The notes under the pieces were generated by a model that was not told the DNA's origin, ran no database searches, and worked only from the letters and a program-made list of their open reading frames with translations. Shown here piece after piece: positions 12,237 through 49,524 of a stretch of DNA of 64,000 bases (position 1 is its first letter; the number at the start of each line of letters is the position of its first letter). The stretch is from positions 25,434 to 89,433 of the forward strand of contig JBBILZ010000001.1 of the NCBI GenBank assembly GCA_037444665.1, read 5' to 3'. This DNA comes from a candidate division WOR-3 bacterium. GTDB lineage: Bacteria; Hydrothermota; Tepidihabitantia; SM23-42; JAOAFX01. The position numbers and the translations under genes are program-made.

Positions 12237-12279
12237 AAACTAAATAATTAAATCTTGTAGTATTAGTGGTTCAAATTTT

Positions 12280-14049: not shown

Positions 14050-14067
14050 AAATAATTAGAAATTTCA

Positions 14068-14664: not shown

Positions 14665-14775
14665 TATACCTCCTTTTAAGGTTAAATCCTACCATAATAA
14701 AAGGCAAAATCTGTGCCAGTCTTTTACTTGAAATTTCGTGCTAAAGTATGGTGCAGTTGTTCAAAAATTGTAATA

Positions 14776-14794
14776 TCTGCACAATTTTTGTGCA
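14776..14794. promoter_or_regulatory. candidate operator: 17-nt perfect palindrome TGCACAATTTTTGTGCA (18/19 nt with flanks) inside the -35/-10 spacer of the 14664 gene
   Basis: Seen in sequence. The core is identical to the 19-nt palindrome ATGCACAATTTTTGTGCAT at 35815..35833. On the minus strand it sits between TTGATG (-35-like) and TATTAC (-10-like), 17 nt apart. Confidence 0.45.
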
Positions 14795-14831
14795 TCAAAA
14801 TATTTGGTTGACAAAATATGTGGAAAAATTG

Positions 14832-15887
14832 TTAATTACTCTTTGGACTAAGGCGCTTGCGTATAAATTCTGCCCTTTTTACATCCCGCTCCTGTTCCTC
14901 AAGAATTTCGCCATAGAATAATTGAATATTCCCTGGCCTCGTGATAAGCATTATCTCATTAACCGTCTCTATATCAATATCTTTTATCAATCCTAATCCT
15001 ATACCCAACCTGACTGCAGAAAGAAGATTCAGAACCTCATCACTATTGATTAACCTTGCTGAACGGAGTATAGCAACACTGCGATATATCTTGTCCTCAA
15101 GTTCATTCTTTGCCCGACTCATTATCACATCCCTTGCCTTTTTTTCAACATCAATCAACATCCGTGCAAATTTATTTATCTTTTCAATCAATTCATCTTC
15201 TTTGAATCCAAGCGTATGTTGATTTGATATCTGAAACAGGTTGCCTTTTATTTCGCTTCCCTCACCATATATCCCGCGGACCATCATACCAAGATTTAGG
15301 GTGCTCTTTAATATCTTGTCAATCTCATTGGTATACACGAGTCCGGGAAGATGGAATAATACTGACGCCCTCAAGCCAGTGCCAAGATTTGTTGGGCAGG
15401 AAGTGATAAAACCATAATTATCATTAAATGCATAACCCAATTCCATGCCCAGAATCTCTTCAACTTCGTATACCTCACTGGCAAGATTTGTCAGATTCAA
15501 ACCACAGGATAGACCCTGAATCCTCAAATGGTCTTCTTCATTAACCATTATGGTAATATTCCCTTTTTCACTGATAAAAACTGCGGTTGGCTGTTCCTTT
15601 TTAATAATTGCTGGTGAAATGAGGTGTGATTCAAAAAGGGATTCTCGTTCCAGACCTTTGATATTCTTTATCAATAGATACTTTCCTTTTAAATTCATCT
15701 CTATTGCTGAACCAACAATCTGAACAAGTTTCTCTGCATCTGCTTGTTTCAATTTGATTTCAAAATGCATTCCTTCAATATTTCTTGCCACCCTGATGCG
15801 TGTGGAAACAACAATCTCATTCTCTTCACACTGCCTGCTCAGTTCAGGAGAAACCAACCACTTTATGTTATCAAACATTTTCCACAC
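14832..15887 (-). CDS. mcsB: protein-arginine kinase McsB
   Basis: 351 aa. Phosphagen-kinase signature CPTNLGTGLRASV and a C-terminal dimerisation region. Confidence 0.8.
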   Translation of the reverse strand: MWKMFDNIKWLVSPELSRQCEENEIVVSTRIRVARNIEGMHFEIKLKQADAEKLVQIVGSAIEMNLKGKYLLIKNIKGLERESLFESHLISPAIIKKEQPTAVFISEKGNITIMVNEEDHLRIQGLSCGLNLTNLASEVYEVEEILGMELGYAFNDNYGFITSCPTNLGTGLRASVLFHLPGLVYTNEIDKILKSTLNLGMMVRGIYGEGSEIKGNLFQISNQHTLGFKEDELIEKINKFARMLIDVEKKARDVIMSRAKNELEDKIYRSVAILRSARLINSDEVLNLLSAVRLGIGLGLIKDIDIETVNEIMLITRPGNIQLFYGEILEEQERDVKRAEFIRKRLSPKSN

Positions 15888-16344
15888 CCAGTGTTTTCAA
15901 TTTATCCCTTATCTGTGCTGCGTCTTCGTAGGCTTCTTTCTCAAGGGCACGGCGCAATTCTTCACGTAGTCTAAAGATTTCAATTGCCCGGCGACCACCA
16001 GTCTTTGCCCTTTTACCAATATGTTTCTCACTCTCCTGCACTTCCTTTATCAATGCCTTGATATACGGCTCAAAAACTGAGAGGCAATTACTGCATCCAA
16101 ACCTACCTATTTTCTTGAATTCAGCAAGACTTAAACAACAGACCGAACAGATCACCCTGTCATCATCATGGCTTATTTTCTCTGATATCTTATGGAGCAG
16201 TTCAATGGGCGATGGTTTCTTATCATTCAATAAATTTCTTTTGCGCGCACACTCCTCACACAGATGGAGTATATTTTCTTGATCGCCGACGACATTCTTA
16301 AAAAAATGTTTCGCAGGCTTTTGCTTGCAATCATCACATAGCAT
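15871..16344 (-). CDS. mcsA: McsA-like activator of McsB (zinc fingers plus UVR domain)
   Basis: 157 aa. Two CxxC pairs (CDDC...CEEC and CSVC...CSNC) and a C-terminal UVR motif EAYEDAAQIRDKLK. Overlaps mcsB. Confidence 0.7.
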   Translation of the reverse strand: MLCDDCKQKPAKHFFKNVVGDQENILHLCEECARKRNLLNDKKPSPIELLHKISEKISHDDDRVICSVCCLSLAEFKKIGRFGCSNCLSVFEPYIKALIKEVQESEKHIGKRAKTGGRRAIEIFRLREELRRALEKEAYEDAAQIRDKLKTLGVENV

Positions 16345-17023
16345 ATAACCTTCCTTCTTTTAAATTATAAACAACATCACCTAATTTGGCAATATCCATT
16401 GCATGGGTCACCAGAATAATTGTCCTTCCTTCATCTTTTAGATGGAGCAACATCTCCATTAGTTTATTTTTATTCTCATAATCAAGATTACCGGTCGGCT
16501 CATCTGCAAGAATCAATAAAGGATTATTGATCAATGCACGGGCAATAGCAACCCTTTGCCTCTCACCCCCGGACAATTCATCAGGAAATCTATTTTTTTT
16601 ATCACTGATACCCAGTCGCTCCAGAATTCCCAATGCCTGCTCATTCATTTCCTTAACCTTTGCACCATTTAAAATTGCGGGAACTATTACATTCTCCAGC
16701 ACAGTAAAATCAGGTAATAGATGGTGAAATTGAAAAACAAAACCAATATATTTATTTCTAATCCGGGAAAGAGCCCGGTCATCATTGGCAAACAGGTCAA
16801 CCTCATTGAACCAGACCCTTCCTTTTGTGGGTTGGTCAAGGCTACCCAGAATATTCAACAGTGTTGATTTACCGCTGCCTGATGGTCCAAATATTACGAC
16901 AAATTGGCCTTTTACTACTTTCAAATCAATACCCCTCAGAACATTTATTGTTTCGTTCTTTAAATAATATGTTTTTTCAATATGTTCTGCAATCAGTAAT
17001 TCACTCATTGCGTAATGCCTCAA
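16334..17023 (-). CDS. lolD: ABC transporter ATP-binding protein, LolD/MacB-type
   Basis: 229 aa with Walker [10 protein letters not shown], signature LSGGERQR and Walker B LILADEPT. Paired with an FtsX-family permease. Confidence 0.7.
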
Positions 17024-18200
17024 CCGTTACTAACCGCGCCGCACGAAATGCGGGATAGATTGTAGCAAAGAAACTTGTCACTATTGCTGCAATCGCTACT
17101 GCAATAAAATCATTGAGCGACATCTCTACAGGCAGGGTCTGAATAAAATAGACATCACCTGGCAGATTTACAAATTGATATTTATTTAATAGTATGCATG
17201 CGATAAGAGAAAAAGCAATACCCAGTAATGTTCCGATAATACCCATTATGCTCCCCACAAAAATAAATATCCTCATTATCTGATTTGTAGTAAAACCATA
17301 AGAACGTAGAATACCAATCTCTTTTGTCTTCTTCTTTACGATATTAACAAGGGTTCCAATGATATTAAATCCTGCGACAATGATGATTAAAGTCAGAACA
17401 ATAAATGTCACGATCTTTTCCAATTTTAATGCCGCAAATACTGAATGATTTGATTCTATCCAGTCCTGAACCCGAAATGGATAGCCAATCCTTTCTTCAA
17501 TAAGTTTAGCATAATAAGGTGTTTTATACACATCATCAACCTTTAGTTCTATTGCACTCACTGCATTACCAATTTCAAAAAGTGCCTGCACATCCTTGAT
17601 ATTCATATAAACAATCGTTGCGTTGTAATCATAGACACCCAGGTCAAAGATTCCTTTAAGCACAAGCCTCTTTGCGCGGGGCAGGAGCCCAATCTGTTCA
17701 GTAAATGGAGATGTAACAATAAGTGTATCACCAACACCAGTCTTTAGATTGCGTGCCAGTTCAATGCCAATCACACAACCATCTTCAAGGTCAAAAACAC
17801 CATCAATCATATGTTCATTAACTTCCGTAATCTTTTTTTCAAGTTCTACATCAACACCCCTTATCACCACACCATCAGCATTCTTTTTATTTCGGATCAA
17901 AGATTTGGTTATGATAAATGGCGCCTTCGCCTTAATGAATGGCAGCCCCTCAAGTTTATCCATAACCTGTTGATAGTTTTCCAGTGGTTCATTGAAAAAG
18001 CGACGCACAATTATATGGGGTGTTCCACCAAGAATTCTCCGCCGTAACTCATTCTGGAAACCATTCATTATTGATAGGGTGATGAGCAATGCGCTCACTC
18101 CGACAAAGATACCACCAATAGCAATGGCAGCAGATAGCGAGAAAAATCTCCGGTGCCGTGAACGGAGATACCTTCTGGCAATAAAAAGTTCAACGAACAT
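17001..18200 (-). CDS. lipoprotein-release-type ABC permease (LolC/E-like, FtsX family)
   Basis: 399 aa. N-terminal TM helix, a periplasmic MacB_PCD-like domain and three C-terminal TM helices. Confidence 0.65.
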   Translation of the reverse strand: MFVELFIARRYLRSRHRRFFSLSAAIAIGGIFVGVSALLITLSIMNGFQNELRRRILGGTPHIIVRRFFNEPLENYQQVMDKLEGLPFIKAKAPFIITKSLIRNKKNADGVVIRGVDVELEKKITEVNEHMIDGVFDLEDGCVIGIELARNLKTGVGDTLIVTSPFTEQIGLLPRAKRLVLKGIFDLGVYDYNATIVYMNIKDVQALFEIGNAVSAIELKVDDVYKTPYYAKLIEERIGYPFRVQDWIESNHSVFAALKLEKIVTFIVLTLIIIVAGFNIIGTLVNIVKKKTKEIGILRSYGFTTNQIMRIFIFVGSIMGIIGTLLGIAFSLIACILLNKYQFVNLPGDVYFIQTLPVEMSLNDFIAVAIAAIVTSFFATIYPAFRAARLVTVEALRNE

Positions 18201-19623
18201 CTTCCTTCCTCATCTGGGGAAAGAGAATCACATCACGAATTGATGGTTGGTTAAGAAGTATCATACATAAGCGGTCAACACCGATTCCCAGACCACCTGT
18301 GGGCGGCATCCCATATTCTAATGCCTCAAGAAAATCTTCATCAATCTCACCAATTCCTTCTTCTTTCTGGGCAAGTTGCTGCTCAAATCTCCTGCGTTGT
18401 TCAATCGGGTCATTCAATTCAGAAAAGGCATTCGCAACTTCCAGACCAAAAATAATTAATTCAAACCTTTCAACCAGTAATGGATTGTCACGATGTTCTT
18501 TCGCCAGGGGCGAGATAACTTTTGGATAATCAATAACAAATGTCGGCTCAATTAAAGATTTCTGAACAAGTTCACTAAAGAGTTTATCAATCTTATAGCC
18601 CATGGTTTGATTCTCGGTCTTTATCCCATACTTCTCGCATATACCATTCAATTCTTTTTCTGTTATCTTTATAATGTCCACACCCAAATTTTTATTGAGT
18701 GCCTCAGTATATTTTATTTTTTTAAATGGCACATTTATAGTAATATCTTTATCCTGAAATATAATTTTATTATCAGGATAGAGATTTTTAACCAGATATG
18801 AAATCAAATTTTCCACCAGTTCCATTATTCCCTGATAATCAGTATATGCCTGATATGCCTCAATCATTGTAAATTCTGGATTATGGAAGCGGTCCAGCCC
18901 TTCATTACGAAAATCCTTGCAAAGTTCCCAGACCTTTTCATAACCACCAACAATCAATCTCTTTAAATACAATTCATCAGCAATACGCAGATACATCTCC
19001 TGGTCAAGTGCATTATAAAAGGTCTTAAATGGTCTTGCTGCTGCACCTCCGTATATCGGCTGTAATACCGGAGTTTCAACTTCAAGAAAACCCTGCCCAT
19101 TAAAAAAATTGCGCAGATGGGAAATGAGCATTGAGCGCCTTTTAAATACCTCTCTTACCTCTTGATTAGCAATCAGGTCAAGATACCTCTTGCGATAACG
19201 AATTTCTATATCTTTCAGACCATGCCATTTCTCAGGCAGTGGCTTCAAGGATTTTGAAAGCAGAACAAATTTTTCTACAAGGATCGTGATCTCCCCGGTC
19301 TTGGTCTTGAACACCTTTCCCTGAACACCAATAAAATCACCAATATCAAAATTTTCAAAAAGTTTAAAATTCTCGCCGAGTTCTTGTTGCCGCAGATAAA
19401 TCTGGAGTCTTTCGTTCTCGTCTTGCAATGTTGCAAATATGGTCTTGCCATGGCTCCTTATCGCTATGATCCTACCGGCGGTGCTGACCTCGGTCTGGGC
19501 ATTACTCAATTCTTCAAATTTTTCTTTTATCTGGACAAAGTTATGGCTCCGATCAAATCTATACGGATAGGGATTAATCTGGAAATCCCGTAATCTTTTA
19601 AGTTTGTTTAGTCTCTCTTCCAT
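18190..19623 (-). CDS. lysS: lysine--tRNA ligase (class II)
   Basis: 477 aa. N-terminal OB fold, class II motifs 1-3 and a LysS-type C-terminus (GIGVDRLCMIL). Confidence 0.9.
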   Translation of the reverse strand: MEERLNKLKRLRDFQINPYPYRFDRSHNFVQIKEKFEELSNAQTEVSTAGRIIAIRSHGKTIFATLQDENERLQIYLRQQELGENFKLFENFDIGDFIGVQGKVFKTKTGEITILVEKFVLLSKSLKPLPEKWHGLKDIEIRYRKRYLDLIANQEVREVFKRRSMLISHLRNFFNGQGFLEVETPVLQPIYGGAAARPFKTFYNALDQEMYLRIADELYLKRLIVGGYEKVWELCKDFRNEGLDRFHNPEFTMIEAYQAYTDYQGIMELVENLISYLVKNLYPDNKIIFQDKDITINVPFKKIKYTEALNKNLGVDIIKITEKELNGICEKYGIKTENQTMGYKIDKLFSELVQKSLIEPTFVIDYPKVISPLAKEHRDNPLLVERFELIIFGLEVANAFSELNDPIEQRRRFEQQLAQKEEGIGEIDEDFLEALEYGMPPTGGLGIGVDRLCMILLNQPSIRDVILFPQMRKEDVR

Positions 19624-19670
19624 AAAGAATAATACACCAAACTATTGAAAAGTCAACTGCTGAAGTAAAA

Positions 19671-20975
19671 TTATGATTTTTTATAACAGAGCCTTGCCCA
19701 GTCAAATGCCTCAACAACATATTTGATAAATCTTCTCAACTCATTCTGATGTTTTCTGAATGCGGTATTAAGGATATTCTCACACAATTTTTGTTCTATT
19801 TCAAAATCTACATATGCAGTTTTGTATATACACAATAGATTATCAAAGATTATTTCAAAATCACCCCTGCTGAATTTTCTTAACAACACTTTATTTTTAA
19901 TAAATCTCGTGGTCCAATCATCTTCCGCGGGGGTTGTGGCAATTACCAGTAGAATATTTGTTTCTTTATAGGCATAGGGCGTGGGACGAACACGATTATG
20001 TAGCAGACGGTCATCAATCTTTTTCATATCTTTGTCATTCAAGGCAATACGTACCAACCCTTCAAGAAATGCCATACCCCTTTGTTGGAAATGATACTCC
20101 CAGATATGGTTCAACTCCTCAAATTCATCAATGATAATTACCAGACCACTGAGTCCAATCTGTTTTGTCAGATAACTGATACCACTGAGAATATAATTAT
20201 AAAAATCTGCAGCCGTAGAAAAATCATACAATGCCGGGATCTGCTGTCCACCCTTTATCCGATAAGGTGCTTCATGGTCTGTTGCATATTCTTTTGTAGA
20301 TTCGCCTTCTATCCATTGATAAAAGACTTCACTATATTTATCATTATCATCTTGCATATCTTTAATTTTTTTGAGGACCGGGGTTAAAAAACAATGGTCA
20401 GGCATCGGTATTTCAACTGATTGCCTCAATAAGTCACGGAATCCATATTCACAATTATCTTTGATAAATCTTAAACTATACACAAGTTCGTGATATATTT
20501 TTTTCGGCCGATACGGTGGGGTTTCCTGAATATGGAGCACACAATAGGTTGTAGCCACACCCTGTCTTAATGATAGATGCCGGAGGTATTCAGCAAGATG
20601 GGTCTTTCCTGAGCCATATTCACCCTCAATTAAAAAGACACCACCGCTCCCCTTTTTTAAATTATCCAGTGATTTCTGAAACAGGTCTATTTCATATGCC
20701 CGACCAAAGGTAAAGTGTTCAATACCCTGATATGGAACAACGCCCATTCTGAGCGCCTCAATTATCCTTCGGGACGAAATTCTGTCTAATTCTATTTCTT
20801 CAACATTCAGTTTTTTTAGCCATTTTGTCGGAAGCCAGAGGACCAATCCACTACGGAATTGGACGCGGGACTCAATATCGTTCCATCTTGTTTCAAGGAC
20901 CACGCCTTCACCAAAAATATTATGGACAACTATGTTAAAATTCTTCTTGTTCAACTTCTTCTTTTTCTTTATCAA
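19671..20975 (-). CDS. P-loop NTPase of unassigned family (paralog A)
   Basis: 434 aa. Walker A GEYGSGKTHL near residue 120 and Walker B LVIIIDEFEEL near residue 285. The ~160-aa spacing is atypical for AAA+. Its N-terminus overlaps the 3' end of paralog B by 41 nt. Confidence 0.6.
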   Translation of the reverse strand: MIKKKKKLNKKNFNIVVHNIFGEGVVLETRWNDIESRVQFRSGLVLWLPTKWLKKLNVEEIELDRISSRRIIEALRMGVVPYQGIEHFTFGRAYEIDLFQKSLDNLKKGSGGVFLIEGEYGSGKTHLAEYLRHLSLRQGVATTYCVLHIQETPPYRPKKIYHELVYSLRFIKDNCEYGFRDLLRQSVEIPMPDHCFLTPVLKKIKDMQDDNDKYSEVFYQWIEGESTKEYATDHEAPYRIKGGQQIPALYDFSTAADFYNYILSGISYLTKQIGLSGLVIIIDEFEELNHIWEYHFQQRGMAFLEGLVRIALNDKDMKKIDDRLLHNRVRPTPYAYKETNILLVIATTPAEDDWTTRFIKNKVLLRKFSRGDFEIIFDNLLCIYKTAYVDFEIEQKLCENILNTAFRKHQNELRRFIKYVVEAFDWARLCYKKS

Positions 20976-22191
20976 GGAGCTCTGCTACACGCGCCTTGAA
21001 TATTGTCATTGCTGTATTTTTGTCAATCGGTTGATTGTTCTCTCTTATCCTCTGAAATGCCTCAATTATTCCCACAACAAAAGTGCGGCGATAAAATATA
21101 TCAAGTATCTGTTTTTCAAGAACCGCTGCAATCATATTTTTTAGGGAGATTGAAAGGGTATTTGAATCAAATTCAAAATTATATGCAGATTCAAATACTT
21201 TTGCCAGCCTCTCCCCTAATTTTTGTAAAAATTCTTCTGGATTCATCTCTATCTTTTCCAGGTCAATTTTAACTCCGGTAGGATTTATCTTTGTAAAACT
21301 TGAGCGCAACCTCTGTTTCAATGCCTCATATACTCCACCTGTCCCTTCAAGCAAAAGATGTTCATCAGGGACCGCATAAAAGAATATAGCACCGGGCAAT
21401 CGGGAATTTCCACACTCGTCAATAATCTGGCGGAGATTGTCCAGGGCACGGCGTTTATCCTTTGTTGAAGAGATGCTCATACCCCTCTCTGCCTCATCAA
21501 ATAAGAAAATAATACCATTATAACCGATTATATTCACAAATTGGATAAAACTCCTTAGCATCCTGAAGGCAGTAGAGCGGTCTATCCTTTCTGCAATACG
21601 ATGTTGCAGTTTCAATTCTCTTACTATATCCTCACCCTTTAACCACTGGACTAAAGAATAAAATCTTTCCTCATCATCAGCCGCAAGGCTCTTGAGTGCT
21701 TCTTTAATACAATTTGTATAACTTGTGCTTTCAAGATTTTTTATGAGTGAAGCAAAATCTCTATCATCGCGAACACGATAATACCATTTACGAAGCAAAG
21801 CCTCTATACCTAATTCCCAGGGGCTCAGCATCTCCTGTTCTGTCAAAGGTGTGCTGATATTTGAAACAATCTTTTTATAGACCAATTCCAGCCTATCAAA
21901 TGGACATTCTGTAGCGCTCAATGATACATAACTTGTAATATAATTGTATTTCCAGGCAAGGTTTCTGATTGAATATAAAAAATGTGTCTTACCTCCACCA
22001 TAATTGCCCGTAATCAATTTAAATGTAGAGATGCTCTGCCTGCCCGGAAAATTAAAATAGTCATTTTCTAACACATTCAAATAAGGTTCAAGCCCGACTG
22101 TAAAATATTCAATGCCAAATTCAGGTGGCGTTCCAAAACCACCGAGTTTATCTATTATTCTTCTTGCAATCACTTGATTTATCCTGCTCAT
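20935..22191 (-). CDS. P-loop NTPase of unassigned family (paralog B)
   Basis: 418 aa. Walker A GNYGGGKTHF near residue 70 and Walker B IIFLFDEAERG near residue 230. Clear paralogy to A around both motifs. Confidence 0.6.
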   Translation of the reverse strand: MSRINQVIARRIIDKLGGFGTPPEFGIEYFTVGLEPYLNVLENDYFNFPGRQSISTFKLITGNYGGGKTHFLYSIRNLAWKYNYITSYVSLSATECPFDRLELVYKKIVSNISTPLTEQEMLSPWELGIEALLRKWYYRVRDDRDFASLIKNLESTSYTNCIKEALKSLAADDEERFYSLVQWLKGEDIVRELKLQHRIAERIDRSTAFRMLRSFIQFVNIIGYNGIIFLFDEAERGMSISSTKDKRRALDNLRQIIDECGNSRLPGAIFFYAVPDEHLLLEGTGGVYEALKQRLRSSFTKINPTGVKIDLEKIEMNPEEFLQKLGERLAKVFESAYNFEFDSNTLSISLKNMIAAVLEKQILDIFYRRTFVVGIIEAFQRIRENNQPIDKNTAMTIFKARVAELLDKEKEEVEQEEF

Positions 22192-22205
22192 ATCCTCTCA
22201 ACTCC

Positions 22206-22226
22206 TTACTACTTACTACCTACTAT
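22206..22226. repeat. TAC-tract repeat fragment (ttactacttactacctactat)
   Basis: Same motif as in the A, B and 57.66 kb copies. Overlaps the stop of the 22216..23097 gene and supplies the AAGGAG ribosome-binding site of NTPase B on the minus strand. Confidence 0.5.
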
Positions 22227-23097
22227 CCTTCTCTATCGCCATATATCCATAATAAGTCCCTTCACCTTCTTCATCATCAGGTATCCAGATTGCCTGTTTT
22301 TTATCTGTGGTTGCATCAAATGTTGCAACATATAGATGAATAGATTTCTGAGTGAATTCAGATTTTTTAAAAAGATACAAAAGATAAGCAAGTTCTACCC
22401 TTGAAAATTCACGATAGTTCTCTTTCCTGGGGTCAATAAAAAACTGCGGTGGTTGTTGTAAGAACACATACTCATCCAATACATCTACGAGAAGCACCTT
22501 TTCTCCATACGGTCGATTCAACAGGTTCAACCTTCTTTTGTATGCACTTTCAAGGTCAAGATAAAATTCCTTTGGGTCAAATTTTTTCTTTTTCAATTCT
22601 TCGTCAAATTTTTTTATAGTCTGATAGACTGTTTCCGGTTCAAGAGGGATTTTGGACTTTAATTTCTCAATCTGTGGTCCAAAATACAGGGCTGCCTCGC
22701 CAAATTCAAAGTTTAAAACAAGGGTATAAAAACCGACTCTTAATATTGGATACTGGCCCTTTATTATTCTGTTATCCTGTTGGAAAAGTGTTTTGAGTTT
22801 TTCACCGAATGCAAAGCGAAATTCCTCTTTTGCCTTTTCAACCTCTTTCTTTTCCTGATTGAGCCAGTCAATTAACTGGTTTTTCAAATCAAATTCTGCA
22901 AGGCTATTCGCAATTTTTAAGAGTTCAGAAACTCTTTTCTCCATAATATAGGCATTATCTACTGGACTCTCTTTTAATTTCGCATAGTCGTTTATCAATT
23001 TTGTTATTTTACCTGCTGCCTTTATCAATCCCTTGAATCCTTCTACAATCTCTTTCATTAGCAGCAATATAATAACCAAAAATATACCCGATGTCAA
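22216..23097 (-). CDS. hypothetical protein, first gene of the NTPase A/B operon
   Basis: 293 aa with no motif I recognise. A short hydrophobic N-terminus is followed by K/E-rich helical regions. Co-directional and close to NTPases B and A. Confidence 0.5.
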   Translation of the reverse strand: MTSGIFLVIILLLMKEIVEGFKGLIKAAGKITKLINDYAKLKESPVDNAYIMEKRVSELLKIANSLAEFDLKNQLIDWLNQEKKEVEKAKEEFRFAFGEKLKTLFQQDNRIIKGQYPILRVGFYTLVLNFEFGEAALYFGPQIEKLKSKIPLEPETVYQTIKKFDEELKKKKFDPKEFYLDLESAYKRRLNLLNRPYGEKVLLVDVLDEYVFLQQPPQFFIDPRKENYREFSRVELAYLLYLFKKSEFTQKSIHLYVATFDATTDKKQAIWIPDDEEGEGTYYGYMAIEKDSR

Positions 23098-23342
23098 TAA
23101 GTTTTTGGGAAAACAATCCTACTTTATCAAAGTTTTTTCAATCATTGACTTATTAAAATTTCTGGTTAAAATGGATTGCAAGGTTATTATGCAAACAAGC
23201 GAAAAGAGAACGAATAATCTATTCAACAGCAAGTTTTTTACCAAGGCAGATTGTAAAATCCAGAATCTCAGAAGAGAAAATTAAACCTTTTGAGACTATC
23301 AATGCAACACTCCTTTTTGCAGATATATCTGGATTCACGGCA

Positions 23343-25898
23343 ATGAGTGAAAAACTTGCCCGCTTAGGCAAAGAAGGGGCAGAAGAAGTAAACAAGATAA
23401 TCAACTCCTTTTTTGCTCCACTCATCAGTGTCGTGTATAAGTGGGATGGAGATATTTATCGGTTTGGTGGCGATGCTTTCTTAGCATTCTTCCCTGAAAT
23501 GCCGGCAAAAGAGTTATCAAGCAAAAGGGCACTGAAAGCGGGTATTGAGATTTCAAAATTTGTTAAAGCCCATGAAATAACAAAGACCAAAGTAGGCTCA
23601 TTCAAAATCAAAATCCATATCGGGTTGACAAAAGGCAAGATCTATTTTCAGGACCTGAAAAATAATTTCTTTCTTGGTGGCAGGATAGTAAATGATTTAA
23701 TGAAAATGATTGACCTTGCTGGTCCTGGTCAGATTGTTGTCAGCTCTGATGTTAAAAAAGAACTACCTGAAGTAAGTTTTACACCAAAAGAGGATACCTG
23801 GCAATATCTCGGAATGAAAATGAAACCGGCTAAAACACAGACAGAAATTAGTAAATTCTCCCCTAAAATATCTGATGATAAATTTACTACACTAAAAAAT
23901 TATATTCCTGATTGGTTACTTAAAAGGATTGAATTGAAACCACATTTTGACCACAAGGATGGAGAACATAGAAAGATTGCGGTCATCTTTTTGCATTTTG
24001 CCGGTATCCCCTATGATAAAAATCCTAAACAGGCGAGCGCAATGCTGGAGAGATTGTATAAAATTGTGAGCCAGTCAGTAGAAAAATACGACGGCTGGAT
24101 AAATGCAATTGATATCTATAAAGACAGCGAAAGATTTCTTGTGGTCTTTGGTTTTCCCAAAATTTATGAAGATGATGAAAAGAGGGCTGTTCTTTTTGCC
24201 TATGAAATTCTGAACCATCCTGAATTAAAACGGTTGCATTTGAGGGCAGGGATAAACTCGGGTTCAGTCTTTGCCGCACCCGTAGGCAGTGAATTGAGGC
24301 GTGAATATGCAACATTGGGTGATGCAGTAAATCTTGCAGCAAGGCTTGCTGCCAAAGCACAGAACCAAACAATTGTAGCAAGCGAACCCATATTTAATAA
24401 AACATTTGGACTCTTTGATTATGAATTTTTAGGTGAACAGGAATTTAAAGGGAAAAAGAAAAAGATTAAGACATATAAGATAATCAGAAAAAAACAGATT
24501 GAAAAGAAGGCACTGACAAGATGGCTCTCTGAAAGTGAAAAGATTGTTGGTAGAGATAAAGAAATTAAAAAGATGCAAAACCTTGTCAGTTTATGTTCTA
24601 CGGGAAAGGGACAGATTCTCGGAATTACTGGTGAGCCCGGGGTCGGAAAATCAAGACTGGTTCAGGAACTTATTAAATTTACAGAAAAGGCAGGATACTA
24701 TATTGTTAAAGGTGATTGCATTTCCTATGGCAGTGCCTTTTCATACCATCCCTGGGTAGAAATTTTAGAACAATTTTTTGATATTTCATCCAGCGATTCC
24801 TTAAAAATACGCACTAATAAAATAAAAGAGAAGTGCATCAGTGTTGATAAAAAACTTACTCAGTGGCTGCCAGTAATTGGCGAGGTTATGGGTGTTCCAT
24901 TCTTAGAAACATCACTCACAAAATACTTAGATGCCAAGATAAAAAAACAGCGTGTTTTTGATATTATCTTTGACTTCTTGAAATTTGTTGCCCGGACCAA
25001 ACCAGTAAATGTAATTATTGAAGACCTGCACTGGGCTGATACTGCTTCAATGGAACTTGTGAATTATATTGGTAGAAACATTGAGGATAAACAGATACTT
25101 TTAACACTGGTCTATCGTCCATTAAAGAAAAAAGAAGAATTTATGGAGAAGGGCTGGACAACTGAATTGAGTTTAAAAGAACTTTCAAAAGAAGAGAGTA
25201 TTGAGCTCGTTCAACTTTTACTCAATATCAAAAATATCCCTGATGACCTGAAAAAAATTATTATTGAAAAATCACAGGGGAACCCTTTTTATATTGAAGA
25301 ACTCGTAAAATCACTGATTGAGCAGGGCTATGTGATTGAAGAAAAAGGAACATGGAAATTTAAGGGTGATATAAAGAAACTTCAATTACCTGATACACTT
25401 GAGGCGGTTATCTTATCAAGGATTGACCGACTTGACCTGGAAGACCGTGATGTATTGCAGACCGCTTCAGTCCTGGGCAGGGAGTTTGATGAATTCTTGC
25501 TTGAACAAATATTCCCTGCGCCACAACTATTAAAAAAATCCCTTCATAATCTTGAGCGCCTTGATTTGATAAAACAGGAAGACAGCAAAGGAAAAAGGCA
25601 TTACTTTTTCAAACATATCCTCACCCAGGAGGTTGCATATGGTACCCTGTCTTTTGCCCGCAAACAAGAACTCCATCGCCAGACCGGCAGATTTATAGAG
25701 ACTGAACTTAAAGACCGAAAAGAAGAATTTCTGGGTCTGCTCTCTTACCACTTCTATGCGGGTGGAGATTATGATAAATCTCTGCTCTATTCAGTTGAAG
25801 CAGGTGAAAAGGCAAAAAAGGTCTATGCCAATGAAGAGGCAATAGAATTCTTCACCCGGGCAATTGATTCATACGAAAGATTGGAAGGAAAGATATAG
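23343..25898 (+). CDS. tandem class III nucleotidyl cyclase domains, STAND (AAA_16-type) ATPase and the start of a TPR region
   Basis: CHD1 carries the metal-binding Asp motifs (LLFADISGFT, GDAFLAFF), while CHD2 carries the N/R motifs (GDAVNLAARL). Walker A GITGEPGVGKSRL, then GNPFYIEEL and TASVLGREF, typical of MalT/AfsR-like ATPases. The conserved LLFADISGFT motif is encoded from about 23289, upstream of the first in-frame ATG/GTG/TTG at 23343, so the true 5' end is unresolved. Confidence 0.7.
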   Translation: MSEKLARLGKEGAEEVNKIINSFFAPLISVVYKWDGDIYRFGGDAFLAFFPEMPAKELSSKRALKAGIEISKFVKAHEITKTKVGSFKIKIHIGLTKGKIYFQDLKNNFFLGGRIVNDLMKMIDLAGPGQIVVSSDVKKELPEVSFTPKEDTWQYLGMKMKPAKTQTEISKFSPKISDDKFTTLKNYIPDWLLKRIELKPHFDHKDGEHRKIAVIFLHFAGIPYDKNPKQASAMLERLYKIVSQSVEKYDGWINAIDIYKDSERFLVVFGFPKIYEDDEKRAVLFAYEILNHPELKRLHLRAGINSGSVFAAPVGSELRREYATLGDAVNLAARLAAKAQNQTIVASEPIFNKTFGLFDYEFLGEQEFKGKKKKIKTYKIIRKKQIEKKALTRWLSESEKIVGRDKEIKKMQNLVSLCSTGKGQILGITGEPGVGKSRLVQELIKFTEKAGYYIVKGDCISYGSAFSYHPWVEILEQFFDISSSDSLKIRTNKIKEKCISVDKKLTQWLPVIGEVMGVPFLETSLTKYLDAKIKKQRVFDIIFDFLKFVARTKPVNVIIEDLHWADTASMELVNYIGRNIEDKQILLTLVYRPLKKKEEFMEKGWTTELSLKELSKEESIELVQLLLNIKNIPDDLKKIIIEKSQGNPFYIEELVKSLIEQGYVIEEKGTWKFKGDIKKLQLPDTLEAVILSRIDRLDLEDRDVLQTASVLGREFDEFLLEQIFPAPQLLKKSLHNLERLDLIKQEDSKGKRHYFFKHILTQEVAYGTLSFARKQELHRQTGRFIETELKDRKEEFLGLLSYHFYAGGDYDKSLLYSVEAGEKAKKVYANEEAIEFFTRAIDSYERLEGKI

Positions 25899-27027
25899 AT
25901 TGCGGACACAAGATTATCTGACAGAAGATAAATGTAGTTCAGTTAGACAAAGTGAACAAGTGAAAAGTATTCGCCAAAATCTATTAATAAAAGCCCTCAG
26001 AGGCAGAGCAGAGATTAATTATTTAACAGGAAAAATTGACGAAGGCATAAGAGATTATACACAGATACTCCAAGAATATGGTGAGAAGAATAGAGACGGA
26101 AATTTTTTTACAATGTTGGATACGATGATTCATATTGCTAATCTTCTGGCGGTTGGAAAGAGTGATTTTTCAGGGGCACAAACACTGATAAAAAAAGCAT
26201 TTAAAAAATTGGGCAAAAAAATGAATACCCGTACCTATGCCCGTGGTCTAAATTGTCTGGGTATAATTTTTAGGCGCCAAAGTAAATATGTTCAAGCACT
26301 AAGTCATTTCAGAAAAGCCTTACGCATATATCAGACTTTAAAAGAAAAAGAAGGTATCGCCGGTGTTTACTCTAACATTGCGCTTACCTATTTTAACAAA
26401 GGTAATCTTGATATTGCACTGAAATATTATAAAAAATGCTTCATTCTATGCCGAGATTCAAATGACCTGCCGACCATAGGAACAACCCTGGGCAATATCG
26501 GCCTTGTTTATCAGGAAAAGCGTCAATATGATAATGCTTTAAAGTACTATAAAGATTATTATGCACTGTCTCTAAAATCAGGCCATAAATTGGGTGTCAG
26601 TATTGCTTTAAGAGACATTGGCGCAATTTATGAAAAAAAATGTTTTTATGATAGGGCATTAGAATATTACAAGAAATCTCTTACTATAGCCGAAGAGATA
26701 AATGCACAAAGAGAAATCGGCATTGTTTCCGGACTCATTGGCTTCACATATAAAGAGCAGGGAGACTTTACCAATGCACTAAAATATTTGACCAGGGCGC
26801 TATCTATATTTGAAAAAATCTCTGATAAAAAACGGTTGGGTTTTGCTTTTATGCATTTAGGGATGGTCTATAGCGAACTCAAAAAATTTGAGGTAGCAAA
26901 ACAGTATCTCAATCAGGCTCAAAAAATTTTTGAAGATATCGGTGATAAAATATCTCTGTCCCGTGTTTTTACCTTGCTCTCAAAATTGGAGACCACACAG
27001 GGGAACGATAGTTACAATGAAAGATAA
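25864..27027 (+). CDS. TPR-repeat protein, paralog 1 (5' overlaps the cyclase ORF in another frame, 3' cut by an in-frame TAA)
   Basis: 387 aa of 34-residue TPR units (e.g. GNIGLVYQEKRQYDNALKYYK). The homology to paralogs 2 and 3 begins near SIRQNLLIKALRGRAE, with a possible GTG start around 25953. A TAA at 27025-27027 is followed in frame by the conserved C-terminal module. Confidence 0.55.
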   Translation: MIHTKDWKERYRLRTQDYLTEDKCSSVRQSEQVKSIRQNLLIKALRGRAEINYLTGKIDEGIRDYTQILQEYGEKNRDGNFFTMLDTMIHIANLLAVGKSDFSGAQTLIKKAFKKLGKKMNTRTYARGLNCLGIIFRRQSKYVQALSHFRKALRIYQTLKEKEGIAGVYSNIALTYFNKGNLDIALKYYKKCFILCRDSNDLPTIGTTLGNIGLVYQEKRQYDNALKYYKDYYALSLKSGHKLGVSIALRDIGAIYEKKCFYDRALEYYKKSLTIAEEINAQREIGIVSGLIGFTYKEQGDFTNALKYLTRALSIFEKISDKKRLGFAFMHLGMVYSELKKFEVAKQYLNQAQKIFEDIGDKISLSRVFTLLSKLETTQGNDSYNER

Positions 27028-27045
27028 ATATTTTTCTCAACAATC

Positions 27046-27258
27046 TTGAAGACTCGTGTGAGACTTGAATATGCAAAATCTCTTTACGAACTTGGGAAAG
27101 TATACCTAACTTGTCGTGAAACGTGGAACGTGAAAGGTAAAACGGCGAAAAAGGCGTTACAATATTTAAAAGAAGCAGAAAAGATTTTCAAAAAAGCAGG
27201 TGCTGAATTGTGGTTGAAGAAAACCAGCGACTTAATAAATCAATTACCCAATTATTAA
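27046..27258 (+). other. orphaned C-terminal module of TPR paralog 1, same frame and separated by a single in-frame stop
   Basis: The 70-aa ORF VRLEYAKSLYELGKVYL...AGAELWLKK matches the C-terminus of paralog 3 (LELAKSLYELGKVYL...AGAELWLKK). Its frame is identical to 25864..27027. Confidence 0.5.
27073..27221 (+). repeat. ~149-bp direct repeat, copy 1 (3' module of the TPR paralogs), about 85-90% identical to 29999..30148
   Basis: Aligned by eye: gcaaaatctctttacgaacttgggaaagtata...gcaggtgctgaattgtggtt. Confidence 0.7.
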
Positions 27259-43134: not shown

Positions 43135-45147
43135 TTATTTTACCAGCAAATTTATCGTCCTCTTAAAAACCTCTGGTTCAATCTCAACGAGTGTAATACT
43201 TTTTAAAAAATCTAAAAAACCCGCAATATCTAAATTCAAAAGATGGTCTTGTACCTGCAATTCAAAGGGTAGATCATAAAAGAATGCACCACTGCCAAGG
43301 GCATCTTCAAATCTTGCAATATTTTCAGCAATTATCTTTTTTATGGATCCCTCACGGGGTACAGGAAACTTCATATCCGGCATCTGAAATTTATTGAGCG
43401 TGAGTATTTTTCCTTCAATATCAAGTGCATCAATACCTTCTTCATAAAGTGCTTCAGCAATAATAAAACCATAAAGCGAACCAAGAAGATGAATAATATG
43501 GGTGTTCTTGCCATCATAAAAAAGAGGAAAATCATGGAGCCCGAGATGCGGGAAAAATCTATTTTTTAAGACTGCCGAAAGTAAATAATTGTAATTTCCT
43601 GCGCCCTTTCCTTCAAAGATTTTGGAAAAGTCAGGACCTTCACCAATACATCGCGCATAAATCTTTTTTTCTTTTTCCAGCACATTTACTTTTTCCCAGC
43701 ATCTTCCGCCCAGGATAAATCTCTCAAGAACATAATAAATCCTTCCCAGCATATGCCCGGTGCTAATATCAAAAACACTGTATTCGCCAAAAGATTTTTC
43801 AGTAATATTGGAATGAATCTTTCCGTAAGTAATTTTATTTTCTAATTTATCACTCAGAAAATATATGCCTGGTCTCATCTCTCTAATAATCCCATCATTG
43901 AACAGTTTCTGAAAGATCGCTTTTAAAATCTCTTCAGGATAAATTGTACTGAATATCTGAAAAAGACTATTAAAGGTTGTGCCAATCCTGCGCCTTTGAT
44001 AAAGATACGAATATACCTGCTGTGGTATAACGGATAATAGAGGTTGATAATTCTTTTCATATAATATTCCCTGTCGGGCAAGTTCAAAGAATGTTTCAAA
44101 GAGAATCTTTTCCCAGTCATTTGAGTAAACAGCAATGGCAAAGAGATTATCAGTGCGGCGATTTCCCCTGCCTGTCCTCTGAAGTAAGGATGAAATATTA
44201 TAGGGCGGACGATAAAGCACAATCGCATCAACATCACCAATATCAATACCAAGTTCTAAGGTTGAGGTCGCCAGTAATATTGCCCGATCAGATTGATTCA
44301 TAAATTTTTCCACCTCTTCCCTTTTGGTTCTCGGCAGACTTGCGTGATGCACAAATACCCGGTCTTCAAAAGCCGGAAATTTAATTTTTTGTGAAAAACT
44401 TTCAGCAAGGCTCCGCGCATTAAAAAAAGCAAGTATTTTCTTTAATTGCCGCTTCTGTATTATGTTATACATCTCTTTTATAAAATTTTTTGCCGGCACC
44501 AGCATATACTCAATTTCACGCATTGATTTAAGGAAACAGACTTGTGGGTTATCAAAGTATCGCTTGCCAATCTCTATATCATCAATCGTTGCAGAAAGTG
44601 CACAATACTGCACTCTTTTATTATTTTTTTCCAGAATTTTTCTTAATCTAATTAAAAGAATCCTCAACTGGTCACCCCTTGGAGTATTATCAAGAAGATG
44701 GATCTCATCAAGGATTATTGCAGAAAGATTCAAAAAAATCTCAGGCACACGGGTCAACATAGAATCAAATGATTCTGGAGTAGTTAAAAGGACATTGGAT
44801 AGATTTCTTTTATTAATAATAGGATGGTCTCCAGTCTTACGACTTATTGAAAGATTTAAATCATTTATCGGCTCTTCCAGCCTTCTAAAAAGGTCATTGA
44901 CCAGGGCACGGGTCGGTGTAATATAGAGCACTTCAAGACCTTTTGTATCGCCTTGAAGCAGATTTTCCAATACTGGAGCAATCACTGCCTCGGTCTTGCC
45001 AGTGGCAGCAGGTGAAATTACCACAACATTTTCTTTATTGAGAATATGGGGAATAGCAAGTTCCTGGATTGGAGTAAACCTTCCAAATCTGCTAAAAAAC
45101 GGACCCCAGGTATATTTCAATAGCTCTTTAATTTGTTGAGAATCCAT
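43135..45147 (-). CDS. DEAD/DEAH-box (DEIH) superfamily-2 helicase, Lhr-core-like
   Basis: 670 aa. Motif I SPAATGKT, motif II DEIH and motif VI QRTGRGNRR, with a roughly 250-aa C-terminal extension. Confidence 0.55.
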   Translation of the reverse strand: MDSQQIKELLKYTWGPFFSRFGRFTPIQELAIPHILNKENVVVISPAATGKTEAVIAPVLENLLQGDTKGLEVLYITPTRALVNDLFRRLEEPINDLNLSISRKTGDHPIINKRNLSNVLLTTPESFDSMLTRVPEIFLNLSAIILDEIHLLDNTPRGDQLRILLIRLRKILEKNNKRVQYCALSATIDDIEIGKRYFDNPQVCFLKSMREIEYMLVPAKNFIKEMYNIIQKRQLKKILAFFNARSLAESFSQKIKFPAFEDRVFVHHASLPRTKREEVEKFMNQSDRAILLATSTLELGIDIGDVDAIVLYRPPYNISSLLQRTGRGNRRTDNLFAIAVYSNDWEKILFETFFELARQGILYEKNYQPLLSVIPQQVYSYLYQRRRIGTTFNSLFQIFSTIYPEEILKAIFQKLFNDGIIREMRPGIYFLSDKLENKITYGKIHSNITEKSFGEYSVFDISTGHMLGRIYYVLERFILGGRCWEKVNVLEKEKKIYARCIGEGPDFSKIFEGKGAGNYNYLLSAVLKNRFFPHLGLHDFPLFYDGKNTHIIHLLGSLYGFIIAEALYEEGIDALDIEGKILTLNKFQMPDMKFPVPREGSIKKIIAENIARFEDALGSGAFFYDLPFELQVQDHLLNLDIAGFLDFLKSITLVEIEPEVFKRTINLLVK

Positions 45148-46289: not shown

Positions 46290-46344
46290 ATAGCCTCCAC
46301 AAAATTATATATAACTCTGTTGGCCTGTCAATAAAATATTCATA

Positions 46345-46383
46345 ATAAAAAACCCGCCCCTTAAAATTTTTTAAGGGGCGGGC
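46345..46383 (-). terminator. rho-independent terminator, bidirectional hairpin, downstream of the 989-aa gene
   Basis: cccgcccctt-aaaatttttt-aaggggcggg, with a T-tract on the minus strand (A-run at 46345-46352 on the plus strand). Confidence 0.65.
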
Positions 46384-46402
46384 ACATAGTAAGATGCGGT
46401 TT

Positions 46403-49342: not shown

Positions 49343-49524
49343 TTCATCTCCTTTTTTTCTGCAAAAGAACACACCAGAATACTATTATTCTGGATATTTG
49401 GTTGTATTTTTTTTGCTATCACCCCCTTTCAATTTTTTTGTCATGTTTGTAAATTCTAATAACAATATATTATAATCAAAAAATGGAAAATGTCAATACC
49501 CATTTTACCCTCAGTTGTTATTCG

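Follow-up and report, generated by a model that had tools for sequence, protein, structure and literature searches.

Analysis of the window, that is, the whole 64-kb stretch of WOR-3 DNA considered here, confirmed three open reading frames on the minus strand, genes C, B and A (Table 1), where a sequence-only reading had placed a three-gene operon. The genes are real, but the unit is incomplete: they are the first three of a four-gene cassette, C-B-A-H, encoding the protein C, two BrxD-family ATPases and an Lhr-like helicase. In the window, gene H lies 22 kb from the triad on the same strand, upstream of glmS. Housekeeping genes flank both parts (lysS, lolCDE, uvrC, glmS and FBPase, with lysS-lolCE-lolD-mcsA-mcsB on the same strand downstream of A), and the accessory-looking position proposed earlier is not evident here. 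The divergent cyclase-STAND gene, to which the operon had been linked, is absent from all other loci, so that this association is not conserved. No tRNA or Rfam element was found in the window.

Table 1. Features of the C-B-A-H cassette in the 64-kb window.
Feature	Position	Strand	Description
Promoter-like site	23069..23097	(-)	TTGACA-17-TATTAT, directly upstream of gene C
Gene C	22216..23058	(-)	280 aa, marker protein of the cassette
Gene B	20935..22191	(-)	418 aa, full-length BrxC_BrxD (DUF2791) AAA+ ATPase
Walker A of B	21982..22008	(-)	GNYGGGKTH, residues 62-70 (K68)
Walker B of B	21487..21513	(-)	IIFLFDEAE, residues 227-235 (D232-E-A-E)
Gene A	19671..20975	(-)	434 aa listed; probably 427 aa from TTG 20954
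Tudor-like domain of A	20811..20936	(-)	N-terminal, residues about 14-55
Walker A of A	20598..20624	(-)	GEYGSGKTH, residues 118-126 (G118, K124)
Insert of A	20145..20537	(-)	Residues 147-277, ~130 residues, AAA+ strand 2 to 3
Walker B of A	20118..20144	(-)	LVIIIDEFE, residues 278-286 (D283-E-F-E)
Gene H	43135..45147	(-)	670 aa, Lhr/Ski2-like SF2 helicase, fourth cassette component

Two gene starts differ from those first proposed. The 293-aa form of C begins at TTG 23097, the start codon used in the mechanical list of reading frames, which coincides with the -35 hexamer of the promoter-like site. This site matches 11 of the 12 consensus positions and has the top score in the scanned region, as a consensus match only. 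Because of this coincidence, and since all 92 close homologues measure 277-292 aa, translation of C most likely starts at ATG 23058. For gene A, the shorter form probably applies, reducing the overlap with B from 41 to 20 nt; the overlap is likewise 20 nt in the relatives L004 and L005, and in the AF2 model of the long form pLDDT stays below 50 over residues 1-13.

A and B are paralogous (25% identity over 268 residues, E 3e-14). Across 51-54 orthologues of many phyla, their Walker motifs show at least 90-100% conservation, so that chance matches can be dismissed. The distance between the Walker lysine and aspartate is 159 residues in A and 164 in B. The earlier description of two paralogues with a spacing of about 160 residues is thus borne out, but the family is not unassigned as it had been called. 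At the Pfam level, PF10923 (BrxC_BrxD, DUF2791; cut-off 22.2 bits) matches B with 155.7 bits (residues 5-387) and A with 99.9 bits (two stretches), and the PADLOC BrxD model gives 127 and 86 bits for the two ATPases, in support of the BrxD likeness suggested earlier. The PADLOC SngB scores (82 bits for B, 63 for A) are below the BrxD scores, there being no curated PADLOC cut-offs. Neither protein reaches the equivalog cut-off of 350 bits of the NCBIfam BrxD model NF033438 (126.1 bits for B, 87.7 for A), and B shares 23-26% identity with annotated BrxD proteins on plasmids. B is the most conserved protein of the cassette, 55-73% identical to its WOR-3 orthologues; K68, D232, E233, N252, R254, R294 and R369 are invariant, and B has extra invariant arginines that are absent from A.

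A is a BrxD-family AAA+ ATPase of the ORC/Cdc6 (initiator) clade with an additional N-terminal small beta-barrel. In the AF2 model, Walker A follows strand 1 of an AAA+ core and strand 3 carries Walker B; the chain ends in a helical lid (helices 370-430), with no strands after residue 364. The closest structural neighbours of A belong to the initiator clade, with a subunit of the Orc1/Cdc6 heterodimer as the best match and TnsC and MuB further down. A sequence search of solved structures revealed no relative of A. The C-terminal winged-helix DNA-binding domain of Orc1/Cdc6 is absent from the model. The long Walker A-B spacing results from the insert between strands 2 and 3, which is predicted to form helices and one beta-hairpin and carries the strongly conserved stretches W221-I-E-G-E-S-T-K and I246-P-A-L-Y-D (invariant columns). 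The RecA-like fold of HerA/FtsK, with which this arrangement had been compared, is not seen. A STAND (AAA_16) identity was likewise rejected: the match (35.5 bits) covers the P-loop region only (residues 90-156), and the fold is that of the initiator clade, with no repeat domain.

The N-terminal barrel of A is Tudor-like: the AF2 model places four strands within residues 15-49, and the sequence bears the signature H-x3-G-x-G...F...W. Residues H18, G22, G24, R30, F40 and W47 are conserved in all phyla (51 orthologues), and the domain is also kept in archaeal copies of A. The Pfam family PF21196 (PcrA_UvrD_tudor, cut-off 23.9 bits) is matched by five of ten orthologous fragments, one at 24.8 bits, one at 23.4 and three at about 12, and does not match the copy of A in the window.

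The first protein, C, has no family in Pfam, NCBIfam, PADLOC or PHROG, in agreement with the earlier remark that it has no recognisable domain, and shows no match to TerB, TerB_N, TerB_C or SngA. In the predicted structure, three helices form an N-terminal bundle, which is accompanied by a five-stranded sheet and, at the C-terminus, by a helical/three-stranded module. The orthologue alignment contains no conserved enzymatic motif and no conserved acidic cluster. C defines an uncurated family with an apparently new fold, the predicted one being unmatched. Some relatives carry a Rho_N/SAP-type insert, a nucleic-acid-binding motif (25.4 bits, cut-off 24.9). The family comprises at least 734 clusters at 50% identity; within the WOR-3 phylum its members share 35-94% identity, which looks like vertical descent. 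C was not found by tblastn in phage genomes, PLSDB plasmids or IMG/VR, nor by the PHROGs scan, and its remote plasmid homologues are recognised by profile HMM only.

H has a DEAD and Helicase_C core in Pfam (113 and 63 bits), and its best PADLOC match, SngC (218.9 bits), is closely followed by BrxHI (217.9 bits). In the PDB it matches Lhr (5v9x, E 3e-23) as well as Brr2/Hel308, and it scores far below the threshold of the NCBIfam Lhr-type equivalogs (183.7 against 850). WOR-3 copies of H bear an extra C-terminal extension of ~140 residues, the helicases elsewhere measuring 517-561 aa. The ATPase and helicase motifs are intact in the cassette proteins.

Loci L001-L006 of WOR-3 share the conserved C-B-A triad; in L002, L003 and L004 the gene immediately after A encodes the helicase, with 52%, 50% and 63% identity to H, respectively. 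In L003, the one shared housekeeping gene available for comparing divergence, an epimerase, is 66% identical, against 37-56% for the cassette. Using the non-WOR-3 sub-alignment A3 of C, which is biased to one subfamily and leaves WOR-3 unsampled, a genome scan identified 63 loci. They occur in bacteria (Clostridia, Poribacteria, Planctomycetota, Chloroflexota, Acidobacteriota, Cyanobacteria, Cloacimonadota and Nitrospira, among others) and in archaea (ANME-1/2, Methanosarcinales, Thaumarchaeota, Korarchaeota and Archaeoglobaceae, among others). The strict order C-B-A-H is found in 44 loci; 45-47 are complete and eight are cut by contig ends. At every locus of the scan the second gene matches B best and the third A, and the duplication that produced A and B is therefore ancient. 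The cassette is spread very patchily over more than 20 phyla. No fifth conserved gene was found: clusters of flanking reading frames are shared only among close relatives.

The suggestion of a candidate uncharacterised system with an unknown partner, C, is supported; the helicase, the Tudor-like N-terminus of A and the wide phyletic spread had been missed. No description of the cassette was found in the literature on DUF2791, PF10923, BrxD, Shango/SngB and BrxHI/Lhr, and neither a 2026 survey of BREX nor the YprA paper covers it. The cassette appears to be previously undescribed.

Around the triad and the helicase in the window (roughly 12-50 kb scanned), no gene for PglZ, PglX, PglW, BrxC or a nuclease is present, consistent with the earlier statement that this is not a canonical BREX locus. 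Apart from generic methyltransferases, nothing of PglZ, PglX, PglW and BrxC occurs among 116 immediate neighbours of the main cassette elsewhere, most of which are unknown genes or serve ordinary metabolism. Some chromosomal copies have type I RM, Old, Mokosh-like or HEPN/MNT genes beside them, and WOR-3 loci generally are flanked by housekeeping genes. The main cassette is only weakly associated with defence.

Since A and B are called BREX ATP-binding proteins by Pfam, PADLOC and the NCBI annotation alike, and H scores as BrxHI, the locus might be read as a decayed remnant of type 2 BREX in which BrxD was duplicated and the rest lost. This explanation is effectively refuted by the conserved stand-alone architecture: more than 45 loci that lack PglZ, PglX and PglW carry the intact four-gene set with C, the similarity of B to BrxD is low in both identity and equivalog score, and in Aulosira a distinct set lies beside a complete BrxD-BrxHI pair.

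The Aulosira set represents a sister cassette with the same four positions and sizes as C-B-A-H, whose proteins carry no annotation beyond hypothetical or BREX ATP-binding domain protein. It directly follows PglZ-BrxD-BrxHI on a conjugative plasmid (Aulosira laxa NIES-50 plasmid3) and lies near AbiEi/AbiEii on pDESTI.01 of Desulfomonile tiedjei. It opens with a 279-aa protein remotely homologous to C (31-34 bits), followed by B-like (134-146 bits), A-like (101-135 bits) and H-like (363-376 bits) proteins. In contrast to the main cassette, there is no Tudor-like domain on the A-like protein, the helicase measures ~700 aa, and the genes are plasmid-borne and adjoin known defence genes (type 2 BREX; AbiE).

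Two plasmid copies, and an ATPase whose fold and best structural match are those of Orc1/Cdc6, with TnsC and MuB among the other matches, could also suggest the initiator set of an integrated or extinct mobile replicon, that is, two ORC/Cdc6-like initiators with a helicase, as in archaeal plasmids and viruses. We consider this highly improbable: integrase, transposase, Rep and partition genes are not consistently adjacent, the proteins lack the winged-helix origin-binding domain, and C, A and B are unmatched in phage, viral and PHROG collections. On the Desulfomonile plasmid, the ParA and HTH proteins are encoded by separate genes upstream of the sister cassette.

A stronger competitor, though still an unlikely one, is housekeeping genome maintenance, in which a helicase and its loader would act on R-loops, transcription-replication conflicts or damaged DNA, with the Tudor-like domain tethering them to RNA polymerase as in PcrA/UvrD and H acting in the manner of Lhr. 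Lhr-type helicases, which H matches in the PDB and, below the equivalog threshold, in NCBIfam, are repair enzymes, and the Tudor-like domain of A may belong to the PcrA/UvrD kind, a binder of RNA polymerase in bacteria. The WOR-3 genes lie among lysS, lolCDE, mcsAB, uvrC and glmS and look vertically inherited, the flanks are stable in seven genomes of the Terriglobia/Versatilivorator group, and the cassette contains no toxin-like effector (nuclease, protease, pore or NADase). Retention of the helicase despite its separation is atypical of mobile defence systems and would suit a domesticated role in the cell. However, a maintenance role is difficult to reconcile with the very patchy distribution over both domains with flanks unrelated between phyla, with the plasmid copies beside BREX and AbiE, with pseudogenised (L018) and orphaned (gene C in L008) copies, and with the fact that the closest characterised relatives are all defence components. 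Moreover, the Tudor-like domain occurs in archaea, whose RNA polymerase would lack the bacterial PcrA-binding context.

We favour, with a probability of about one half, a C-B-A-H cassette that couples an ORC/Cdc6-style ATP switch to a helicase, related to BrxD-BrxHI and Shango and serving defence or surveillance. Because homology and gene order relate it to both systems, a Shango/BREX-related defence or DNA-surveillance machine appears the most likely role. By analogy, we infer that the four proteins may form a complex that loads the helicase. The ancient paralogues A, with its Tudor-like N-terminus, and B would assemble as a hetero-oligomer on nucleic acid, and C, which has no catalytic signature, could be an adaptor or recognition subunit. 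The ATP-bound complex would then recruit, load or license the Lhr-like 3'-5' helicase H on its target, presumably foreign DNA. In the WOR-3 lineage of the window, the cassette sits among housekeeping genes, has probably long been kept, and has been split, its helicase now 22 kb away. A more ambitious proposal, which we put forward only tentatively, is an ancient and widely transferred system of immunity or foreign-DNA surveillance, operating by helicase-loading, nuclease-free interference and domesticated and split in WOR-3. In it, the heteromeric ATPase pair and the adaptor C would place H on invading DNA. If true, interference would come from the action of the helicase itself.

Within prokaryotic immunity, BrxD-BrxHI and SngB-SngC rank with the most poorly understood components, without known mechanism or structure. 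As a stand-alone, minimal and very widespread relative, the cassette presents the ATPase-helicase core apart from the methylation and PglZ machinery and could serve to ask how an ORC-like ATPase acts on an Lhr-like helicase. It adds two new elements, the uncurated family C with its unmatched predicted fold and the fusion of an AAA+ ATPase to a Tudor-like domain, putatively of the PcrA/UvrD type. Its bias towards uncultured lineages may explain why defence-island screens in model bacteria missed it, and the split arrangement embedded among WOR-3 housekeeping genes offers a useful test of whether such modules become domesticated.

In initiator-clade switches such as Orc1/Cdc6, TnsC, MuB and DnaA, ATP-dependent assembly on DNA recruits a helicase or transposase. 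The archaeal Orc1/Cdc6 heterodimer (PDB 2qby) resembles the cassette in its paired paralogous ATPases. In contrast to Orc1/Cdc6-type initiators, the cassette ATPases have no C-terminal winged-helix domain and no sequence-level family membership, carry the 130-residue insert between strands 2 and 3, and are partnered with a monomeric-type SF2 enzyme rather than a ring helicase.

The likeness to BrxD-BrxHI of type 2 BREX/Pgl is closer. In both, an ATPase of PF10923 with an ORC/Cdc6 AAA+ fold and an insert after strand 2 is encoded immediately upstream of an Lhr/Ski2-like SF2 helicase. BrxD is described as an AAA+ protein of ORC/Cdc6 type whose linkage to BrxHI is tight and which may load or activate that helicase (PMC12839542), a logic that the cassette may share. 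However, the cassette has two divergent ATPases (25% identical to each other, 23-26% to BrxD) instead of one, with scores far below the NCBIfam BrxD cut-off; A bears a Tudor-like N-terminus, whereas BrxD is described without an extra domain. The dedicated, apparently new-fold protein C is present, PglZ, PglX, PglW and BrxC are absent, and the helicase outside WOR-3 is shorter (~525 aa) and lacks the C-terminal region of BrxHI.

Shango is a phage-protective system (10.1101/2022.11.11.516204) built from a TerB-like protein, an ATPase and a DEAD helicase. Like the cassette, it combines a non-enzymatic first protein, a DUF2791-type ATPase and then a DEAD/DEAH helicase, with no obvious effector; SngC is the best PADLOC match of H, and SngB matches both A and B. 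The cassette differs from Shango in that C is not a TerB protein and is predicted to fold differently, there are two ATPases in place of one, a Tudor-like domain is present, and the helicase, adjacent in most other loci, is 22 kb away in the window. The cassette also occurs mainly in archaea and uncultured bacterial phyla rather than in Proteobacteria.

The genes C, B and A form a co-directional run of ORFs on the minus strand of the window, in which a partner protein, C, precedes two P-loop ATPases. A and B can be aligned with 25% identity over 268 residues (E 3e-14) and are paralogues as judged by sequence. Their Walker A motifs (GEYGSGKTH in A, GNYGGGKTH in B) lie 159 and 164 residues, respectively, from the Walker B motifs (LVIIIDEFE and IIFLFDEAE), and both motifs are invariant (at least 90-100% conserved) across 51-54 orthologues from many phyla. 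The Walker A lysine is K124 in A and K68 in B, and K51 in the helicase H described below. The paired NTPases with long Walker spacing noticed in the sequence-only reading are thus real, while its long starts for C and A have to be replaced. For C, translation most likely begins at ATG 23058, giving 280 aa, since the TTG farther 5' belongs to a promoter-like site as its -35 hexamer, and all close homologues, of 277-292 aa, align from that methionine. As this site stops only ~10 nt before the ATG, the transcript would be leaderless or very short-leadered. The start of A is probably TTG 20954, which yields a 20-nt overlap with B, as in relatives.

Coordinates of the features (nucleotides of the window, unless residues or a plasmid record are indicated)
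Feature	Position	Strand	Remarks
lysS-to-mcsB run	14832-19623	minus	
Promoter-like site TTGACT-16-TATTAT	19656-19629		just upstream of lysS
A	19671-20975	minus	434 aa
B	20935-22191	minus	418 aa
C, as listed	22216-23097	minus	293 aa as listed
Promoter-like site TTGACA-17-TATTAT	23069-23097	minus	near-consensus; -35 hexamer is the TTG listed as C start
Cyclase-AAA_16 and three TPR genes	23343-30169	plus	851-aa protein with two adenylate/guanylate cyclase domains and an AAA_16 STAND-type NTPase, then the TPR proteins
Archaeal-type class V fructose-1,6-bisphosphatase/aldolase	30327-31412	plus	PF01950, 605.8 bits
H	43135-45147	minus	orthologue of the helicases after A; upstream of glmS
H, extra region	43135-43560	minus	C-terminal ~140 residues
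Neighbours of H	45195-49372	minus	glycine-rich 364-aa protein with Por_Secre_tail (T9SS) sorting domain; 989-aa protein
A, strand 1	residues 112-117		then Walker A; AF2 model
A, strand 2	residues 141-146		AF2 model
A, insert	residues 147-277		~130 residues, helical with one hairpin; AF2 model
A, strand 3	residues 278-283		bears Walker B; AF2 model
A, strands 4 and 5			after strand 3; AF2 model
A, helical lid	residues 370-430		AF2 model
Sister cassette, Aulosira laxa NIES-50 plasmid3 (L070)	record 12393-24287		conjugative plasmid; directly downstream of PglZ-BrxD-BrxHI
Sister cassette, Desulfomonile tiedjei pDESTI.01 (L071)	record 10215-15641		close to AbiEi/AbiEii

The resemblance to BREX ATPases suggested in the sequence-only reading, which had named DUF2791 and PADLOC as places to look, holds for the family and not for the equivalog. 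Both proteins belong by sequence to Pfam PF10923 (BrxC_BrxD, formerly DUF2791), with 155.7 bits over the full length of B and 99.9 bits for A, and PADLOC matches them to BrxD (127 bits for B, 86 for A) and to SngB, the Shango ATPase (82 and 63 bits). However, with 126 (B) and 88 bits (A) they stay below the NCBIfam BrxD equivalog cut-off of 350 bits, and on this measure they are not BrxD equivalogs. The AF2 model of A, built from 72 homologues (pLDDT 85.7, pTM 0.81), displays a regular AAA+ fold, so that the refuting outcome named in the sequence-only reading, Walker motifs failing to superimpose in a model, did not occur. The insert follows strand 2, so that the long Walker spacing corresponds to the insert of the family, in agreement with PMC12839542, where BrxD is placed among AAA+ proteins of the ORC/Cdc6 type. 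The paralogues are asymmetric in sequence, the invariant arginines R254 and R294 being present in B and absent from A.

At its N-terminus A also carries an additional four-stranded domain (residues 15-49 in the AF2 model), and its signature (H18, G22, G24, R30, F40, W47) is maintained among orthologues from bacteria as well as archaea. PF21196 (PcrA/UvrD Tudor) is matched by 5 of 10 orthologous fragments, one of them above threshold (24.8 vs 23.9 bits); the window copy has no PF21196 match by itself. The PcrA/UvrD Tudor domain binds RNA polymerase, which by analogy could be the partner of this Tudor-like domain. An internal partner or nucleic acid is at least as likely, since the domain is conserved in archaeal copies. 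Some archaeal orthologues of ~380-390 aa (L051 and L058 from Thaumarchaeota, L033 and L034 from ANME-1) are devoid of it, and the two thaumarchaeal loci have no adjoining helicase.

No match to C was found in Pfam, NCBIfam, PADLOC or PHROGs, using the window protein and ten diverse relatives. The 92 homologues returned by a word-based search (35-94% identity) belong without exception to candidate division WOR-3 or to unnamed MAGs. When 1.84 billion representatives were searched with a profile, 734 clusters (50% identity) reached E <=1e-3, and 213 of these reached E <=1e-30. The residues conserved across phyla are mainly glycines, prolines and aromatics, together with E131, Q202 and R220; no nuclease-like acidic cluster was found among them in the cross-phylum alignment. 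One sub-lineage carries a Rho_N/SAP-type insert, which hints at an association with nucleic acid.

In three more distant WOR-3 genomes (L002-L004), a helicase (DEAD/Helicase_C, 650-707 aa) lies directly 3' of A. Its orthologue in the window, H, is 63% identical to that of L004 and is Lhr/Ski2-like by sequence, with SngC (218.9 bits) and BrxHI (217.9 bits) as best PADLOC matches. The WOR-3 cassette helicases are longer than those of all other phyla (517-561 aa), and the extra C-terminal region of H has no Pfam match. Beside H lie a Por_Secre_tail gene and a further large gene. Peptidase_C25/Por_Secre_tail genes also adjoin the cassette in several relatives' loci (L004, L005), which probably only mirrors the abundance of this type of gene in WOR-3.

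A sub-alignment of C without WOR-3 sequences, run against one genome per GTDB species, hit 63 loci, and the four proteins of the window were then used to search the ORFs there. Bacteria with such loci include Clostridia, Poribacteria, Planctomycetota (with Ca. Brocadia), Kapaibacteria, Caldatribacterium, Chloroflexota, Terriglobia, Cyanobacteria, Cloacimonadota, KSB1, Nitrospira, Tectomicrobia and Deltaproteobacteria; among the archaeal carriers are ANME-1/2, Methanosarcinales, Methanoperedens, Thaumarchaeota, Methanodesulfokora, Archaeoglobaceae and Micrarchaeota. The triad recurs as a conserved neighbourhood: the strict order C-B-A-H is found in 44 of the 63 loci and the cassette is complete in 45-47, while eight are cut by a contig end after A, two carry the triad but lack a nearby helicase (L048, L058), one is pseudogenised (L018) and one is an orphan C (L008). 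In every locus gene 2 scores best with B and gene 3 with A, which places the ATPase duplication before the spread. These data establish the triad as three-quarters of a conserved, autonomous and horizontally spread four-gene module, whose parts are a pair of ORC/Cdc6-type ATPases with intact catalytic motifs, an Lhr-like helicase that is likewise intact, and a non-enzymatic protein with a new predicted fold. In L018, on the Ca. Poribacteria chromosome OZ244587.1, C, B and A are each split into two ORFs, hence its assignment as pseudogenised; in L008 (OZ240244.1), neither ATPase nor helicase occurs within 9 kb of C.

Around the cassette, no fifth gene common to different phyla was found among the flanking ORFs, and the immediate neighbours (n=116) are heterogeneous; both observations make it unlikely that the module is a replicon initiator. 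A minority of these neighbours is of defence type (type I RM at ~2 loci, Old, a Mokosh-like helicase-nuclease, HEPN/nucleotidyltransferase pairs and dCTPase-like genes), as a raw tally. The context in the window is housekeeping, with uvrC, mcsAB, lolCDE and lysS on one side of the triad and, on the other, the cyclase-AAA_16 protein and three TPR proteins, the fructose-1,6-bisphosphatase, an HhH-GPD glycosylase and glmS. The cyclase gene, noted as divergently transcribed in the sequence-only reading, is not conserved beside the cassette in other loci. Downstream of A, the same-strand genes are lysS, lolC/E, lolD, mcsA-like and mcsB, and a public contig has an identical arrangement of the triad and this run.

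The lysS-to-mcsB genes are tightly packed and co-directional, with mostly overlapping stops and starts, and lysS may possess its own promoter, given the promoter-like site upstream. The run mixes, unusually, outer-membrane lipoprotein sorting with an McsA-like (UVR motif) protein and the McsB arginine kinase; this protein-arginine kinase pair is best known from Firmicutes. On the plus strand, the cyclase-AAA_16 protein scores 243 bits against the TOMM kinase/cyclase family (cut-off 705) and precedes three TPR proteins in succession (387, 487 and 486 aa), and the archaeal-type fructose-1,6-bisphosphatase stands in a bacterial genome. The whole window (1-64000) holds no tRNA genes or Rfam families at gathering score.

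Direct searches did not find C in phage, viral-contig or plasmid collections. With B as the tblastn query, two plasmids proved to carry a sister cassette, made up of a remote homologue of C (279 aa, 31-34 bits to the C profile), a B-like protein (134-146 bits), an A-like protein without the Tudor-like domain (101-135 bits) and an H-like helicase (~700 aa, 363-376 bits vs 245 for the neighbouring BrxHI). The annotation of these genes goes no further than hypothetical or BREX ATP-binding domain proteins, and their helicases are of similar length to those of WOR-3. On the Aulosira plasmid the sister cassette adjoins PglZ-BrxD-BrxHI as a separate set, which, together with an identity of 23-26% between the ATPases and annotated BrxD, renders a BREX remnant unlikely. 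Both host species are cultured, making the sister cassette open to experiment.

Orc1/Cdc6 heterodimers, TnsC/MuB and the BrxD-BrxHI relationship proposed in PMC12839542 suggest by analogy that A and B may assemble on nucleic acid into a hetero-oligomer that depends on ATP. C is the putative subunit for recognition or adaptation in this complex, which would in turn recruit or license H. We estimate a probability of about one half that the cassette serves in defence or surveillance. This role is favored by its relatedness to components of Shango and of type 2 BREX, by a distribution that is patchy, by plasmid copies lying next to BREX and AbiE, and by the decayed copies. A housekeeping role in genome maintenance is less likely but still plausible, with the lack of an effector in the cassette, the weak association with defence islands, the apparent vertical persistence in WOR-3, the housekeeping flanks in the window and the retention of an unlinked helicase in its favor.

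The candidate uncharacterised system with a partner protein postulated from sequence agrees with these results: no description of the C-B-A-H cassette was found in the searchable literature, and PADLOC 2.0 does not list it as a system. C-B-A-H should be annotated neither as BrxD proper nor as Shango, since it does not pass the tests that define them. It is best filed with the modules of Shango and type 2 BREX that combine a DUF2791 ATPase with an Lhr-like helicase, from which it differs in the duplicated ATPase and in the Tudor-like domain on one copy, A, and, compared to Shango, in a new protein family, C, in place of TerB.
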